Assembly (NCBI GenBank): GCA_045653945.1
Contig: JAZOML010000004.1
Location: forward strand, 57,095 to 121,094
Origin: Eubacteriales bacterium
Lineage (GTDB): Bacteria > Bacillota > Clostridia > Oscillospirales > CAG-272
Reading direction: 5' to 3'
DNA length: 64,000 nucleotides
The notes under the pieces are model-generated. The model saw only the letters and a list, made by a program, of their open reading frames with translations. It made no database searches and was not told the origin of the DNA. Every line of letters starts with the position of its first letter. Position 1 is the first letter of the stretch. Below, one piece after another: positions 3,043-57,272 of the stretch. The position numbers and the translations under genes were made by a program.

Positions 3043-3401
3043 TACTCGCTACCGTCCTTTGCTCCGTTTAAATACTCGTCAAGTATCTGCGCGGCAGTTA
3101 CAGTATCCTGCCTGTCGCTCTCATAAGAGCCGATACGCTCACCAAGAGCCTTAAACTCGCCAAGCATCTCACCGCCAAGAGCCTTTATAGCCCTTAAAGC
3201 CTCACCATTTTCGCCCGAAAGCTGCTCGTAACCCTTTTTCTGCGTTAACCCGACCTGCTGAACAAAACCGTAAATATCGTTAACCTTTCTTGACAAATCC
3301 TTTACGATACCATACATCTCCACACAAAGCTCAAAAGCCTTCGTGGCATCAGATTTCTTTTTCTTAAATAACATACCGTATATCCTCTCTTTATAATTCA
3401 T
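3042..3401 (-). CDS. Hypothetical phage protein between terL and portal
   Basis: A 119-aa ORF. Its start overlaps the terL 3' end and its stop overlaps the portal ATG (TAATG), which suggests translational coupling. Confidence 0.6.
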   Translation of the reverse strand: MNYKERIYGMLFKKKKSDATKAFELCVEMYGIVKDLSRKVNDIYGFVQQVGLTQKKGYEQLSGENGEALRAIKALGGEMLGEFKALGERIGSYESDRQDTVTAAQILDEYLNGAKDGSE

Positions 3402-5226
3402 CCCAGTTTATAAACGAACCGCCATTATCCCCAAACGCCTCGGGATTTGCAAAGCCACTTTCACCGCCGCTAAAATGCCGCTTGATGAAATCATCTTCAA
3501 CACCCTGCGGCTCAATCCAAGTGCTGACCTGCTGACCGCTTATGAAATGAGCGATGGCAAGCGCTAAAACGAGGTCGTCGTGCTGACCGTCAAGGGCCTC
3601 CTGACGCCCGTTTGCTTTCTTGACAAAAACGCTCATCTCTTTAAGCGTAGCAATATCACACTCAATGCAAGGATCCTCACGGAATAAACGAACAAGCTCC
3701 GCAATTATAATCGGACGCGTCTTTGACGTCGTATTAAATCCCGCGTCGAGCACAACCTCGTCGTGCACACCGTCAAGCCTTTCACGCATATAAACGTTTG
3801 AATAACCGTACTCCTGCGTAATAATTCGCATCGGCTCACGGGAATAATTGATTTCAACACCGATAAGAGCATCGTGATAATATTTCCCAAGACAAATAAG
3901 CTGCTCCGCATACTCGTCCTCGTCCATACGCTGACGGTGAAGCGTCGCAACGGTCCGCCCACTCATACAGTTGATAACCTTTGCACTGAAATAGTCCTCG
4001 CCCGAGCCGGCAGTATCACCGCCAATGGCATAAGGAGCAAGACCTGTAACAGCACCCACGCCGTTCTTTTTCGTTTCAGGCTCTGTATGAATGCGAATAA
4101 ACCCGTCCTTTCGCTCCACAAAACGAATGTCAACCAGCTTCTTCTCCTCGCCAACCTTTACACGCCCGTCATAGATAGGCTCGTAAACCTTGCGATACTC
4201 AAAGCAACCAACCTTGACAGGCTGAATAGACGAGCAAGCCACAAGCCTGCCCGAAAGCTTCTCCATATCAAATACACAGTCGCCCGAAGCAACAAACGCT
4301 TCCTCGGGAGAGCAAGGATACTCCTGACGAATAGAGGACTTGTCAAGATAACTCTCATACTTCTTGCAGTACCACGTTACCTGCTCCTTATCAAGCCCCA
4401 TTTCATAAAGTAACTTGATACGCTCTATAAGCCAACTGTCATTTGTCTGTAAATACTCATACTCGGTGGAGCGATACTCGTCGGTAAGCCACCAACCGTA
4501 AAAGCACTTGACACAAGAGCCGCTGTCCCACATATCCTTTATCTCGTTAAAGCCGTTTGCAGTAGTTTCATATACCACAATAGCGTCAGAGGTAAGCGCC
4601 TCACCGATACCCTTTTGCAGCTCGGCAAGAGAACAGGTGTAGAAAGCAGCCTCGGAGAAATGAGCAAAGCTGAGCGTCATTCCTCGGAATATGTTATCCT
4701 CGGCAGTCGCAACACGCCAAGAGGAATTTAACTTGTCAAAGAAATACTCCGTCTTTGAATTGAACTTGATAGACGGCTTTAAAGCCTCAGGCAAACGGTC
4801 AAATACCACCTTTGCCTTGTCGTTGAATATAGCCTTTGTGCTGTCGCTTCGGTGCGAAATGGTAGCACCGGCAAAATTCTTTCTCGTTATAGAAAACGCA
4901 AGCTGAATAGCGGTAATAACAGAGGTAAAGCCCTGCTGCCGCCCTTTAAGTATCAGATAAGGAAGTCGAGTGCCGTTTTCTTCAAGCCGAGAAATAAAAT
5001 CAAGCTGAACGGCATTCAAAAAGAACGGAACACGCTTCTTTTTCTTGTCAATAATGTAAAAACACGCCTCAATAAGCAGATACGGACGCTCAAGCACCTC
5101 GCTCCGCAGCGAAGGCTCGGATAAAATCTTCTGCACAGCCGCATCAACAAGCCGCTTATCAAACTCAATGTCCTGCTTCTGTGCCCACCGAATTTTCCTC
5201 TTGTCAATAATGTCCTGTACGGTCAT
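3391..5226 (-). CDS. terL: Terminase large subunit
   Basis: A 611-aa ORF with an ATGA overlap to the terS stop. It has an N-terminal ATPase-like region (LILKGRQQGFTS) and C-terminal nuclease-type acidic motifs (GGDTAGSGEDY, DGQHDDLVLALAIA). Confidence 0.85.
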   Translation of the reverse strand: MTVQDIIDKRKIRWAQKQDIEFDKRLVDAAVQKILSEPSLRSEVLERPYLLIEACFYIIDKKKKRVPFFLNAVQLDFISRLEENGTRLPYLILKGRQQGFTSVITAIQLAFSITRKNFAGATISHRSDSTKAIFNDKAKVVFDRLPEALKPSIKFNSKTEYFFDKLNSSWRVATAEDNIFRGMTLSFAHFSEAAFYTCSLAELQKGIGEALTSDAIVVYETTANGFNEIKDMWDSGSCVKCFYGWWLTDEYRSTEYEYLQTNDSWLIERIKLLYEMGLDKEQVTWYCKKYESYLDKSSIRQEYPCSPEEAFVASGDCVFDMEKLSGRLVACSSIQPVKVGCFEYRKVYEPIYDGRVKVGEEKKLVDIRFVERKDGFIRIHTEPETKKNGVGAVTGLAPYAIGGDTAGSGEDYFSAKVINCMSGRTVATLHRQRMDEDEYAEQLICLGKYYHDALIGVEINYSREPMRIITQEYGYSNVYMRERLDGVHDEVVLDAGFNTTSKTRPIIIAELVRLFREDPCIECDIATLKEMSVFVKKANGRQEALDGQHDDLVLALAIAHFISGQQVSTWIEPQGVEDDFIKRHFSGGESGFANPEAFGDNGGSFINWDEL

Positions 5227-5711
5227 AATTCCTCAAATCTCACAACGCCGCCGTGATTTACAGTCGGCTCATTGGACGCAAGCGCATACTTGTCATACAT
5301 AGTGCCCATAATTACACCAAGCTTTGAAAGGTCGGGAAGCTCAATAGCCGAAAGCTTGTTAATCAATGCACGCTTGTCCGCAAAGGTAACGTCCTCGTCA
5401 GTATTTTCAACAATTTCATCAATAAGCTTGTCAATAGCGTCCTCGCTACGTTCTACTCTTTCAAGCCGCCTCATAATTAAACGCTGCGACCTCATAACAC
5501 AGTCCCAAGCGTTCTTGATGAACTCCTCTTTTTTTTGACTTTTAAGTTCTTCAAAGTGAGGATCGTCCTTTCCCTGCCGCACGTTCCAGCCGTAAACGGT
5601 GTTGTAATTAAGATTAAGCTCCTTTGCAACGTCAGGTACGCTCTTGCCACTCGCAAGCAAAGCGAGAGCTTTTTCCTTTATCTCCGCACCAAATTTCTTT
5701 CCCTGTGCCAC
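5223..5711 (-). CDS. terS: Terminase small subunit with N-terminal HTH
   Basis: An HTH (SVPDVAKELNLNYNTVYGW) directly upstream of terL. The start was moved to the second GTG at 5711 because AAAGGTG lies about 7-9 nt upstream of it. The track start at 5717 is too close to the RBS. Confidence 0.75.
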   Translation of the reverse strand: MAQGKKFGAEIKEKALALLASGKSVPDVAKELNLNYNTVYGWNVRQGKDDPHFEELKSQKKEEFIKNAWDCVMRSQRLIMRRLERVERSEDAIDKLIDEIVENTDEDVTFADKRALINKLSAIELPDLSKLGVIMGTMYDKYALASNEPTVNHGGVVRFEEL

Positions 5712-5852
5712 AAACACACACCTTTCTTATAAAATATTTCGCCATTACTCGCCCTGACGAAATAGAACAGCCTACAAACGTACACCGCCGACGAGAACAA
5801 ATGTACGCCGCCTCGGAGCGCAAGACAAAAAATGCTCCGAGGAACACGCTTT

Positions 5853-5948
5853 TGGTAGCGGTGATTGGATTTGAACCAATATCCCGAGCCAGACCCCCGT
5901 CCGCTCGCTGCATTACCTCGGCACCAGAAAACCGTCGCACACACCGCC
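5853..5948 (-). ncRNA. tRNA-like RNA of 96 nt: 7-bp acceptor stem, canonical T-arm and encoded CCA, but no canonical anticodon arm
   Basis: The reverse strand reads GGCGGTG...ATTGG-TTCAAAT-CCAAT-CACCGCT-A-CCA. Internal hairpins are GCGACGG-TTTT-CTGGTGC and CGAGCGGAC-GGGG-GTCTGGCTCG. No 5-bp stem with a 7-nt loop exists in any register. Confidence 0.5.
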
Positions 5949-5984
5949 ATAGCTTTGAAACCCTTTGAAGTTTCTCATAACTAT

Positions 5985-6013
5985 ATTGTACCACGCCAAA
6001 ATTTAAATTTCTA
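5985..6013 (-). promoter_or_regulatory. Candidate promoter for the late (tRNA-like/terS) transcript
   Basis: The minus strand reads TAGAAA-17 nt-TGG-TACAAT (extended -10, weak -35). It lies downstream of the late-activator terminator and about 30 nt upstream of the tRNA-like 5' end. Confidence 0.4.
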
Positions 6014-6069
6014 CCCCTAAACCGCCATTTTTGACTATAAAAACCCACATTTCACCACAAAAAGTGCGA

Positions 6070-6102
6070 ACAAAACAAAAAAAGGACACCGTTTCCGATG
6101 TC
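6070..6102 (-). terminator. Intrinsic terminator after the late-activator gene
   Basis: The minus strand reads GGACATCG-GAAA-CGGTGTCC (8 bp including one G-U pair) followed by TTTTTTTGTTTTG. Confidence 0.75.
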
Positions 6103-6140
6103 CCTTTTGCTAAATATTTAGTTAATCTCGCCAAGCAAAA

Positions 6141-6536
6141 TCAGAGTAACCCACTCTCCGCAAGCTTCTCGGCAACCCTGTTTATACGAGCCTCAACACC
6201 CCTTACAGTGTAGCCAAGCAGCTCCGCAAGCTCGGCGTGCGACTTCGTTCCGAGATACCCCTCTCGGATGATAAGCCTGTCGATAACGTCAAGACAGCTG
6301 ATAGCACTTTCATAACGCTTTTCAAGATCGTCAAGCTCGTATATTCTCTGCTGTATCTCTTTTTCCTTTTCTTTAATGTATGCTTCAACGCTCTCAATCC
6401 TTGCAGGACTTCCCTTGCTCTCCTTCAAAAAAGCAAGCTGCTGCTTTTTTCCTTCAAGTGCGGTTATCATACCGTCAATATCCCGCCTGCCATACTTTAT
6501 AAGCCTTAAATCACTCTTTACCTTCTCCGCTGTCAT
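6141..6536 (-). CDS. Late-gene transcriptional activator, sigma-70 region-4-like HTH (ArpU/RinA-type position)
   Basis: A 131-aa ORF whose C-terminus (SHAELAELLGYTVRGVEARINRVAEKL) resembles a sigma region 4.2 HTH. It is the last gene before the terminase module. Confidence 0.6.
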   Translation of the reverse strand: MTAEKVKSDLRLIKYGRRDIDGMITALEGKKQQLAFLKESKGSPARIESVEAYIKEKEKEIQQRIYELDDLEKRYESAISCLDVIDRLIIREGYLGTKSHAELAELLGYTVRGVEARINRVAEKLAESGLL

Positions 6537-6771
6537 TTCCTTTTCCCTCCTGATATAAAATCACTAAAACACAGTTTTCCAGCTTACTTCTTTCCTCAAA
6601 GTCAAGCTTACGCTCTGCCCTCGCCTCAACCTCGTCAGCGATACCGCAGGCGAAACGGTCATCGCTGATACTCTTGTCCTTCCGACGCTTTGCGCCTGCC
6701 GCATACCCGACAATAAAACACGAAAGACACACAATAAGCCAAAGCACCAATGCAATCTTGTACTCAATCAT
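6511..6771 (-). CDS. Small phage membrane protein
   Basis: An 86-aa ORF with an N-terminal TM helix (IALVLWLIVCLSCFIVGYAAG). It is co-oriented with and packed into the operon. Confidence 0.55.
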   Translation of the reverse strand: MIEYKIALVLWLIVCLSCFIVGYAAGAKRRKDKSISDDRFACGIADEVEARAERKLDFEERSKLENCVLVILYQEGKGNDSGEGKE

Positions 6772-6782
6772 ATCGGCACCCT

Positions 6783-56108: not shown

Positions 56109-57272
56109 ATGAAAATATTTTTTAAGAAATTTGTTGCACTTGCGCTTATAGGTGTAATAACTATCAGCGCACTTGCGTCTTGTACAGTAACCAAAAAATA
56201 TCCCGGCGCGCCCGAAGGTATGCGTCCGGTAAACGACGGTTCAAACGGAGTAATTATGTATATTCCGTCAAATTGGAGCGTTGACAATTCCAGCGGAGTG
56301 CCGACTGCATATTTTTCCTTTGTTGATGACACTATGGTAAGTCTTATTACCGTTCCTGCCGAGGAGCTTGGTAATCGAACCATTCCACAGTATTTTGCTG
56401 AATACAAGACGAAATTTGAGGCTATGGATAAGGGCTTTACCATCATTCCCTACTCATCTGAGCTTGAGTACACTCCTATTGAAAATCCTACGCTTTACGG
56501 GGATATGCTTGAGTATCGCTACACCTTGAAGATTTCCGAGAGCAAAACCTACGGCTTTGCTCAAACGTTCTTTAGAACAAGCGCAGACTCCGACCTTTAC
56601 GTTATCACTTATAGCAGTCCGGTAAATAAATTCGAAACTCATTATGCCGACGTTGTTCAAACCTACACCACAATAAAAATTGCAAGTGAGGTTGAGCCCC
56701 TTCCCGAAGAGGATGAGCTTCCAAAACCGATTTTTACAACGGTTGAGGGGACGCCTGACGGTTACTCGGCAATAGCGGGTGAGCATATTAATTATGTACT
56801 TTTCGTGCCAAGCGACTGGGTACCGCTTGTTAATACGGGAATTTCGGCTGCTTCAAAGGGGGATAATTCCACCGTTTCCTGTTCAGTTACGGCATTTGAC
56901 TTTCAAAATAACAACAATTATATTGAGGCGGATGATTACGACAGCTTCTTTGTCGCTCACGAGAAATCAATCAAGGATACATTTGGCAATATTTCGTTTA
57001 CTGATAAGAGCAAAAAGTATGAAAACGTTGATTTTGCAGGTTATACTAAAATAATTAAGGACGCAAACGGAAACGACGTTAACAATCTCACAGCACCAAG
57101 AAAATACGTTTACAGCATTGAGATAGACGATACCGCCTACACCTATGAACAATATATTACGATACACAATGCCGAAATTGTACTTCTCACACTTTCCTGC
57201 AAAAGCACTGATTACGAAGCAAATAAGCCAATATTTGACGGAATCACACAAAATTTTAAATTTACTAAATAA
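56109..57272 (+). CDS. Lipoprotein of unknown function
   Basis: Signal peptide with lipobox ALASC. A 387-aa product with no recognised motifs. Confidence 0.7.
   Translation: MKIFFKKFVALALIGVITISALASCTVTKKYPGAPEGMRPVNDGSNGVIMYIPSNWSVDNSSGVPTAYFSFVDDTMVSLITVPAEELGNRTIPQYFAEYKTKFEAMDKGFTIIPYSSELEYTPIENPTLYGDMLEYRYTLKISESKTYGFAQTFFRTSADSDLYVITYSSPVNKFETHYADVVQTYTTIKIASEVEPLPEEDELPKPIFTTVEGTPDGYSAIAGEHINYVLFVPSDWVPLVNTGISAASKGDNSTVSCSVTAFDFQNNNNYIEADDYDSFFVAHEKSIKDTFGNISFTDKSKKYENVDFAGYTKIIKDANGNDVNNLTAPRKYVYSIEIDDTAYTYEQYITIHNAEIVLLTLSCKSTDYEANKPIFDGITQNFKFTK

Follow-up and report, generated by a model that had tools for sequence, protein, structure and literature searches.

The subject of this report is a transfer RNA (tRNA)-like element of 96 nucleotides (nt) in the late-operon leader of a prophage, on the minus strand between the gene for a sigma-like late activator and terS, the gene for the small terminase. 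The window, by which we mean the whole stretch of 64,000 nt that was analysed (positions 57,095 to 121,094 of contig JAZOML010000004.1, assembly GCA_045653945.1), comes from an uncultured Clostridia bacterium with an assembly of 1.7 Mb and 42.5% G+C. The host genome encodes its own tRNA-Met genes and a transfer-messenger RNA (tmRNA), neither of which matches the element, and the element occurs in it only once. The locus contains the following features, in the order of transcription (bp, base pairs; aa, amino acids).

6141..6536, minus strand: late activator gene, 131 aa, sigma-70 region 4-like (Pfam Sigma70_r4_2, E 4.6e-05)
6069..6108, minus strand: intrinsic terminator closing the activator transcript (stem 6108..6079 with 13 pairs, then a T run; from a scan)
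6044..6059, minus strand: conserved box TGTGGTGAAATGTGGG upstream of the promoter, a candidate activator site
5985..5993, minus strand: extended -10 late promoter TGGTACAAT (promoter scan, TG before the second hexamer)
5853..5948, minus strand: tRNA-like element, 96 nt (from the Rfam alignment, homologues with segmentation, and covariation)
5948-5942 / 5863-5857, minus strand: acceptor stem, 7 bp with one G-U (GGCGGTG/CACCGCT)
5939-5936 / 5912-5909, minus strand: D stem, 4 bp (TGCG/TGCA), enclosing a 23-nt insertion at 5935-5913
5907-5903 / 5889-5885, minus strand: "anticodon" stem, 5 bp (CGAGC/GCTCG), with a 13-nt loop at 5902-5890
5880-5864, minus strand: T arm (ATTGG TTCAAAT CCAAT)
5856 and 5855-5853, minus strand: discriminator A and encoded CCA
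5223..5717 as listed, minus strand: terS, small terminase with a helix-turn-helix (Pfam HTH_Tnp_1 and Terminase_5)
5226..3391, minus strand: terL, large terminase, 611 aa, overlapping terS

The original prediction for this DNA, made from its letters alone, described the gap between the activator gene and terS as non-coding, and two rejected protein-coding readings agree with this. A sense open reading frame of 90 aa (5950..5678) has no Pfam match and loses its start codon in a related locus, L193, where ATG becomes ATA; an antisense open frame (114 aa from a TTG start) shifts frame between close relatives and is not conserved as a protein. The terminator and the candidate extended -10 promoter that had been proposed on the minus strand of the gap were both recovered by scanning, the latter as TG-n-TACAAT at 5993..5985. 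The promoter region is common to the homologous loci: TG-n-TAnnnT is found at the equivalent position in L111, L109, L195 and L197, and the same four loci have a comparable hairpin followed by a T run.

Read from 5' to 3', the element is laid out as GGCGGTG TG TGCG (23 nt) TGCA G CGAGC (13 nt) GCTCG GGAT ATTGG TTCAAAT CCAAT CACCGCT A CCA. The 7-bp acceptor stem with its single G-U pair, the T arm, the discriminator A and the encoded CCA are as first described. The middle of the element had been said to lack an anticodon arm and to offer no 5-bp stem with a 7-nt loop; a covarying 5-bp stem (CGAGC/GCTCG) does fill that place, and what is missing is only the 7-nt loop, instead of which there are 13 nt. 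By extending into this loop the "anticodon" stem can reach 9 bp, closed by a GGGG tetraloop; this longer form is the second of two hairpins proposed earlier. The first of them (GCGACGG/CTGGTGC) contains an A-G mismatch, and comparative data favour instead the D stem TGCG/TGCA, closing a 23-nt insertion that contains a CGGY/GCCG helix. A relic of an attachment (att) site was considered and rejected, as the element retains both acceptor strands.

Contrary to the initial view of the element as an orphan, homologues were found in the related metagenomic phages L192, L193, L194, L111 and L109, in each case between a sigma-like activator gene and terS. The L192 element is identical to that of the window, and the homologues thus provide five distinct versions (the window and L192 counting as one); the others measure 97 nt in L193 (with 11 differences), 73 nt in L194, 101 nt in L111 and 79 nt in L109, and the leader sequences are 57% identical on average. 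The element thus belongs to the late-operon leader of a small clade of Clostridia phages. Searches of 50,697 phage records with the gap (blastn) and with TerL (tblastn) found nothing; scans of IMG/VR, JGI metagenomes and GTDB representatives with terS, TerL and motifs added no further members, INPHARED yielded none either, and the element pattern was not found in 400 genomes of the host class.

Because MAFFT could not align the interiors of the L194 and L109 elements, stems were segmented by hand, each was checked against its own locus, and pairs were counted on an alignment restricted to the stems, with runs of A standing in for the loops. All five versions keep an acceptor stem of 7 bp, a D stem of 4 bp, an "anticodon" stem of 5-6 bp and a T stem of 5 bp. 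All 105 stem cells are paired (105/105), and 15 of the 21 pairs have changed on both sides. None of 500 shuffles reached any of these measures, and sliding the partners by 1-3 columns lowered pairing to 30-50%. The T loop and the CCA fix where the acceptor and T stems lie, and these two stems account on their own for 60/60 paired cells and seven compensatory pairs, the acceptor being paired at 7/7 positions in every version. Within the acceptor stem, pairs 2:71 and 4:69 change from G-C to A-U in L111, and pair 1:72 is G-U, A-U or G-C. The T stem occurs as ATTGG/CCAAT, GTCGG/CCGAT, GAAAG/CTTTC and GCGCG/CGCGC, and the "anticodon" stem as CGAGC/GCTCG, CAGGC/GCC(C)TG, CGTAGC/GCTACG, TCGTG/CACGA and GGGCA/TGCTT.

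The closest pair of versions tells the same story at short range. Every one of the 11 differences per 96 nt between the window and L193 either falls in a loop or junction or preserves a pair; the pair-keeping changes are G1-U to A1-U, CGAGC/GCTCG to CAGGC/GCC(C)TG (with one bulged C) and G-U to G-C. This holds although identity between the two loci is lower in the element (88.5%) than in the sequence on either side of it (93-95%). Such a pattern is the signature of an RNA selected for its shape. The covariation sought in related phages is present, together with conservation, which argues against a random relic; the earlier suggestion of a decayed phage tRNA is contradicted by four stems that are kept fully paired by compensatory changes across five diverged versions.

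As a tRNA, the element is marginal. ARAGORN calls three ordinary tRNAs in the window (His, Arg and Glu) and nothing at the element, in keeping with the original prediction. The Rfam tRNA model (RF00005) matches 5856..5948 on the minus strand at 29.6 bits against a cut-off of 29, with E values of 0.042 over the whole window and 0.0003 over the 461-nt gap, and its alignment has a D stem of 4 bp (UGCG/UGCA) closing a "loop" of 23 nt, and an anticodon stem of 5 bp (CGAGC/GCUCG) closing one of 13 nt. The signal exceeds chance yet fails as a normal tRNA. The same model has no match at E<=1 for L111 and L109 and gives no row for L193 and L194 at E<=10, where an overlapping tmRNA match of the same clan could hide a weak one. 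Among the homologues ARAGORN calls L109 alone, as "tRNA-??? (ggaa)". No tmRNA, T-box, Y-RNA-like or riboswitch family in Rfam matches near any cut-off.

The acceptor stem, CCA and T arm of a canonical tRNA are present, and a 7-nt anticodon loop with a definable anticodon is absent: the "anticodon" loops of the five versions are 13, 13, 15, 12 and 10 nt long and have no sequence in common. As discriminator the versions have A, A, U, A and U, the variable region has 3-6 nt with no conserved long arm, and pair 3:70 is C-G throughout, hence there is no alanine identity pair (no G3:U70). The D-region loop, which contains GG, measures 23-24 nt in the window, L193 and L111, 3 nt in L194 and 9 nt in L109; the T loops of the homologues read TTCAAAT, TTCGAAT or TTCGATT, with covarying stems. 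An allo-tRNA combines an anticodon and a long variable arm with an acceptor/T geometry of 8/4 or 9/3 (Mukai et al. 2017; reviewed in PMC7609411). All five versions have 7/5 instead, a geometry that excludes allo-tRNAs, and no anticodon can be defined, so that the allo-tRNA-like molecule once entertained for this element finds no support. Judged by its sequence, the element appears unable to read a codon.

An origin from tRNA genes, as had been surmised, is supported. The 28 nt at its 3' end are 89-93% identical to elongator tRNA-Met genes from genomes of the host family, with U6:A67 in the element against A6:U67 in those genes. A recent copy of the host's own tRNA-Met was rejected as a source, since the host gene reads GGCTGAA...TTCAGCTACCA. 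We surveyed 146 TerL-related loci with enough upstream sequence for ARAGORN tRNAs, and 43 of them (43/146) have at least one in the 1.6 kb that precede terL, encoded on the same strand as terL. Most are tRNA-Met(CAU) with an A1xA72 mismatch, together with tRNA-Gln(UUG). The canonical tRNA-Met(CAU) and tRNA-Gln(UUG) genes of L025-L044 resemble the element in slot, strand, acceptor and T-arm sequence and encoded CCA; they differ from it in having 7-nt anticodon loops and RF00005 scores of 45-65 bits, compared with the 13-nt loop, 23-nt D insertion and 29.6 bits of the element, whose homologues fail the model.

Related phages carry tRNAs of several kinds. The tRNA-Met(CAU) genes of L025 (1785-1859), L029 (1590-1664), L035 (1908-1983) and many others have the initiator-like A1xA72 end but not the three G-C pairs found in the anticodon stem of initiators; they lie upstream of terS and usually have a tRNA-Gln(UUG) immediately after them. 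In L041 (204-280), L043 (1379-1455), L044 (2162-2238) and L078 (2162-2238) an initiator-like tRNA-Met has an 8-nt anticodon loop, CUCAUCAA, which ARAGORN reads as a four-base "catc", and a tRNA-like unit of L075 has a loop of 10 nt. Two further oversized units just upstream of terS have a perfect acceptor, T arm and CCA: one of 105 nt in L084 (2360-2464), which has no normal D or anticodon arm and stops about 10 nt short of the ribosome-binding site of terS, and one of 94 nt in L029 (2242-2335), in which a normal D arm is followed by 37 nt in place of the anticodon arm. There are also tRNA-Lys-like genes (UUU/CUU), 82-90 nt long, that do not encode CCA and seem to have a long variable arm (L026, 1862-1943; L112, 1662-1749; L117, 1858-1944), a combination that is unusual for a lysine tRNA.

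Taken together, the ordinary and aberrant units indicate that the slot upstream of terS is an old tRNA site, in which a proper anticodon loop has been lost, with the fold retained, more than once. Ordinary tRNA-Met and tRNA-Gln genes in the same slot of distant relatives likewise point to an element that is derived from a tRNA and selected for shape, not for decoding.

The remainder of the leader is also structured, and contains the following features.

5957..5974, minus strand: 5' leader hairpin (GAAAC, 8 nt, GTTTC) between the likely start site and the element, forming in the whole-leader fold
5847..5852, minus strand: linker AAAGCG directly 3' of the CCA, in every homologue
5811..5842, minus strand: leader hairpin 1 (CCTCGGAGC / GCTCCGAGG, U-rich 14-nt loop), with no T run and hence not a terminator
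5780..5806, minus strand: leader hairpin 2, from the consensus fold, overlapping the second acceptor-strand copy and the direct repeat
5790-5784, minus strand: second copy of the 5' acceptor strand, GGCGGTG
within 5775-5812, minus strand: direct repeat GGCGGCGTACATTTGT / GGCGGTGTACGTTTGT in the 3' leader, overlapping hairpin 2
5735..5764, minus strand: leader hairpin 3 (TATTTCG / CGAAATA), just 5' of the ribosome-binding site, with compensatory pairs in L111 and L109

At the position of the 5' leader hairpin, L111 and L109 have GAACG-AAAA-GTTCG. The linker lies within CCAAAAGCG in the window, L193, L111 and L109 and within CCAAAAAGCG in L194. Hairpin 1 covaries, being TCATACGG/CCGTATGA in L111 and TCACACGG/CCGTGTGA in L109; an alternative CCGAGG/CCTCGG pairing of the D insertion with hairpin 1 was rejected, as it is not conserved in L111. 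The scan detected no terminator between the element and terS. Upstream of the -10 hexamer, the box motif TGTGGTSAAATGTGG occurs twice in L195 and L196, once together with a degenerate copy in L111, and also in L197, and a related repeat, TGTGGTGTACTGTGGG, occurs twice in L024; the box is likely to be the binding site of the sigma-like late activator.

The sequence GGCGG(T/C)G(T) is present in three copies, one at 5942-5948 and two within 5775-5812 on the minus strand, and in L193 the upstream and downstream copies share a G-to-A change, both reading AGCGGTG. Permuted-tmRNA models (RF01850, RF04321) match the T arm, 3' acceptor strand, CCA, spacer, second GGCGGUG (5790..5784) and UUUCGUCAGGGC. 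The element does share the order of these parts with permuted tmRNA precursors, and a UUUCG(A/U)CAGGG stretch resembles the tmRNA D-loop analogue. A tmRNA, one-piece or permuted, was nevertheless rejected: the scores of 15-20 bits (15.4-20.5; E 0.005-0.5) are far under the cut-offs of 47 and 84, there is no G3:U70, no tag reading frame was identified, and the host has its own tmRNA. Beyond the window sub-lineage the downstream strand also pairs imperfectly, at 5-6 of 7 positions of the 3' acceptor strand in L194, L109 and L111, whereas the upstream copy always pairs at 7/7; two-piece tmRNA models have no match at E<=1 on L109 and L111. For these two reasons we treat the downstream copy as a repeat (GGCGGYGTACRTTTGT occurs twice). 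Candidate interpretations are a leftover second tRNA, a means of switching partners, or protein-binding boxes.

The reading that we favour, tentatively and at slightly less than an even chance, is that the element descends from a phage tRNA, no longer decodes, and has been kept as a tRNA-shaped leader module that acts as a processing signal at the 5' end of the late mRNA, much like a t-element. The late activator would switch on the extended -10 promoter at 5993..5985, and transcription would start about 30 nt upstream of the element. The RNA is predicted to fold into an L-shaped tRNA mimic with an elbow, a 12-bp acceptor/T stack, and ACCA where a tRNA would have its 3' end. Host ribonuclease P (RNase P) would then cleave between U5949 and G5948, as in a pre-tRNA, and a second endonucleolytic cut might fall in the conserved A-rich linker after the CCA, ahead of hairpin 1. 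The late mRNA (terS-terL-portal and onwards) would thereby acquire a defined, structured 5' end, which may affect its stability or expression.

A cut by RNase P is proposed because the element, preceded by a 5' leader of about 30 nt and followed by the A-rich linker with its stable hairpin, retains the features that are read by this enzyme and by others acting on the top half of tRNA. All versions keep the acceptor/T stack and NCCA, and also the T loop (TTCRAWT), U8 and D-region GG that make up the elbow; U stands at position -1 in four of the five. In addition, the element always lies within the leader, downstream of the conserved promoter, and is followed by the invariant AAAGCG and covarying hairpins before terS.

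Several observations weigh against this reading. The five versions are few, and all come from metagenome assemblies; L192, L193, L111 and L109 belong to the samples Logan SRR10098314 and ENA ERZ27297552, ERZ28633638 and ERZ27297631. The nearest TerL relatives (L022, L023, L024 and L105, 73-76% identity) do not have the element; L024 and L105 have a reverse-strand gene before a short terS leader, and L022 and L023 a small protein gene at that place. It is also absent from L195-L197, whose terS is 64-66% identical. Since close relatives do without it, the element is dispensable and patchily distributed. Placement of the D and "anticodon" stems was manual, which biases the count towards pairing, and thermodynamic folding is unremarkable (z of -0.86 for the element and -1.23 for the whole leader), so that folding energy alone does not single out the cloverleaf. 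Finally, RNase P would need no more than a minihelix. That the D and "anticodon" stems are conserved, as are the stretches GCCGAGGTAATGC and GACGGGGGTCTGG in the lineage of the window, L193 and L111, suggests more than a cut site, and it keeps alive both an enhancer acting in cis and a mimic acting in trans.

In the first of these, which we consider unlikely, the fold would stay on the mRNA and raise translation of terS or the late genes by contact with the ribosome. There is precedent: the yjdF riboswitch is a tRNA-Lys homologue in the 5' leader of Firmicutes mRNAs, and grafted cis-tRNA leaders increased in vitro translation 2- to 6.3-fold, a gain that depended on the tertiary fold (the elbow GG) and not on CCA (PMC9142559). 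The four stems and the GG of the D region would fit such a need for the whole L shape, and in relatives (L084, L044) about 10-15 nt separate the end of the tRNA or tRNA-like unit from the ribosome-binding site of terS. In the lineage of the window, however, the element is separated from the start codon by about 140 nt and three hairpins; CCA and AAAGCG are invariant although CCA was dispensable in the yjdF work; no complementarity between T loop and ribosome-binding site was seen by eye, and there is no Rfam yjdF match in gathering and E-value searches. In the second, along the lines of the mimic or decoy of the original prediction, the element would be excised as a stable, CCA-ended RNA of about 96 nt and would serve as a decoy or sponge for a factor recognising the top half of tRNA. 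Such a factor might be a defence toxin, triggered by late structural proteins, that modifies or cleaves the 3' ends of tRNAs, or a CCA-adding or tRNA-repair enzyme. Defence toxins do act on tRNA 3' ends. Such a role, improbable as we judge it, would account for the encoded CCA, the perfect acceptor/T stack and a full cloverleaf with an anticodon free to vary, and the RNA would be the first-expressed, highest-dose part of the late transcript. It is weakened by the lack of an identified defence or counter-defence partner, by closely related phages without the element, and by variation of the discriminator and the 1:72 pair, which means that no single identity set is kept. A broader form of the idea, that a clade of temperate phages of gut Clostridia has made leader-encoded tRNAs into a new class of tRNA mimics that lack an anticodon, are excised from the first ~130 nt of the late transcript and act in trans, strikes us as rather improbable. 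One possibility is that these mimics could soak up toxins or enzymes attacking tRNA acceptor ends as capsid and terminase appear. In the sub-lineage of the window the copy at 5790..5784 may let the 3' strand switch partners, in a permuted-tmRNA-like, regulated two-fold choice.

Function could also be denied altogether. A phage tRNA gene of tRNA-Met or tRNA-Gln type, disabled by insertions in its D and anticodon loops and now decaying, would explain why the element occupies the site of the relatives' true tRNAs, why its tRNA model score is marginal and why some close relatives have lost it entirely, and aberrant anticodon loops of 8-10 nt do exist in other lineages (L044, L075, L076). Such a neutral relic is already disfavoured, and we regard it as quite improbable: at a mean leader identity of 57% there are no unpaired stem cells and 15 of 21 pairs have changed on both sides, substitutions between the window and L193 avoid breaking pairs, and CCA and AAAGCG are invariant. 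The opposite extreme, a working non-canonical tRNA or aminoacylated adaptor for unusual decoding or non-ribosomal transfer, is very unlikely. Acceptor stem, T arm and CCA are intact, ARAGORN reads the 8-10 nt loops of relatives as four-base anticodons, and AlaRS, SerRS and LeuRS ignore the anticodon. Yet unrelated loops of 10-15 nt cannot present a common anticodon, pair 3:70 is C-G and not G-U in all five versions, the discriminator is either A or U, no long variable arm is conserved, and the homologues are not accepted as tRNAs by ARAGORN and Rfam. Equally hard to sustain is a signal at the DNA level, in which GRCGGY boxes would bind TerS (as a pac site) or the activator and the RNA fold would be incidental. 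The pac sites of some phages do lie at or before terS, GGCGGTGT is found at 5948 and 5790 and GGCGGCGT at 5812, L111 and L109 have similar GRCGGY triplets, and both L193 copies changed alike to AGCGGTG. This does not explain compensatory change in four helices, the T-loop consensus or the CCA, nor why the upstream copy always pairs fully and the downstream copy does not.

Among known systems, the favoured reading of a processing signal has its closest counterpart in plant mitochondria, where Forner and colleagues reportedly described t-elements in 2007 as tRNA-like processing signals in mRNAs. As with those, a tRNA-like fold with acceptor and T features and no apparent decoding role lies in the untranslated region of an mRNA. 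RNase P and RNase Z reportedly recognise t-elements and make mRNA ends at them; like the present element, t-elements plausibly arose from tRNA genes at the same place. The present element differs in belonging to a Clostridia bacteriophage and not an organelle, and in having a full four-stem cloverleaf with an encoded CCA; its cleavage is predicted from sequence. Literature searches returned no report of such elements in phage late-operon leaders. In MALAT1 (mascRNA) and MEN-beta, a tRNA-like module in a longer transcript is cut by RNase P, which defines the end of the long RNA and releases a small RNA bearing CCA. Those are eukaryotic, nuclear RNAs cut at a non-coding 3' end, whereas the element lies at the 5' end of a bacterial polycistronic mRNA. 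The yjdF and grafted cis-tRNA leaders share with it a tRNA homologue in a 5' leader that retains the D-/T-loop elbow while the anticodon is lost or irrelevant (Trachman et al. 2022, PMC9142559); the element, unlike yjdF, has an acceptor stem with CCA and no evident ligand pocket.

A gene of the same size as the activator gene precedes the element in L192 (131 aa), L109 (133 aa, with a faint Sigma70_r4_2 match) and L111 (134 aa), and a search of 400 genomes of the host order with the activator protein gave, beyond the window's own genome, weak matches only (28-31% identity). The start of terS in the list of open reading frames is GTG 5717 (MFVAQGKK). Because its homologues, of 160-165 aa, begin with MAQGKK, the true start is probably GTG 5711 (162 aa), and GAAAGGTG is located 7 nt upstream of that codon. 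A small "Sequestin" gene (PF21825) lies between terS and terL in L022 (2760-3008), L023 (2735-3004), L024 (2747-3001) and L109 (2366-3001) and is absent from the window. Over 5223-6780 the window is a mosaic relative to L192, with 98-100% identity in the activator gene and the gap and 92-93% in terS and terL, a pattern suggestive of recombination at the start of terS or close to it.

As a rule, phage tRNA genes are treated only as helpers in codon usage or as replacements for tRNAs destroyed by host defences. Here, a phage lineage has kept the shape of a tRNA by selection after losing its anticodon, right where the packaging and late operon begins. For annotation this means that tRNA finders overlook such elements or list them as "tRNA-???" with four-base anticodons. 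If the proposed cleavage by RNase P is true, the principle of tRNA punctuation and t-elements would extend from organelles to phage late mRNAs, and the element would be a concrete case of the exaptation of a tRNA gene into a signal for RNA processing or expression.

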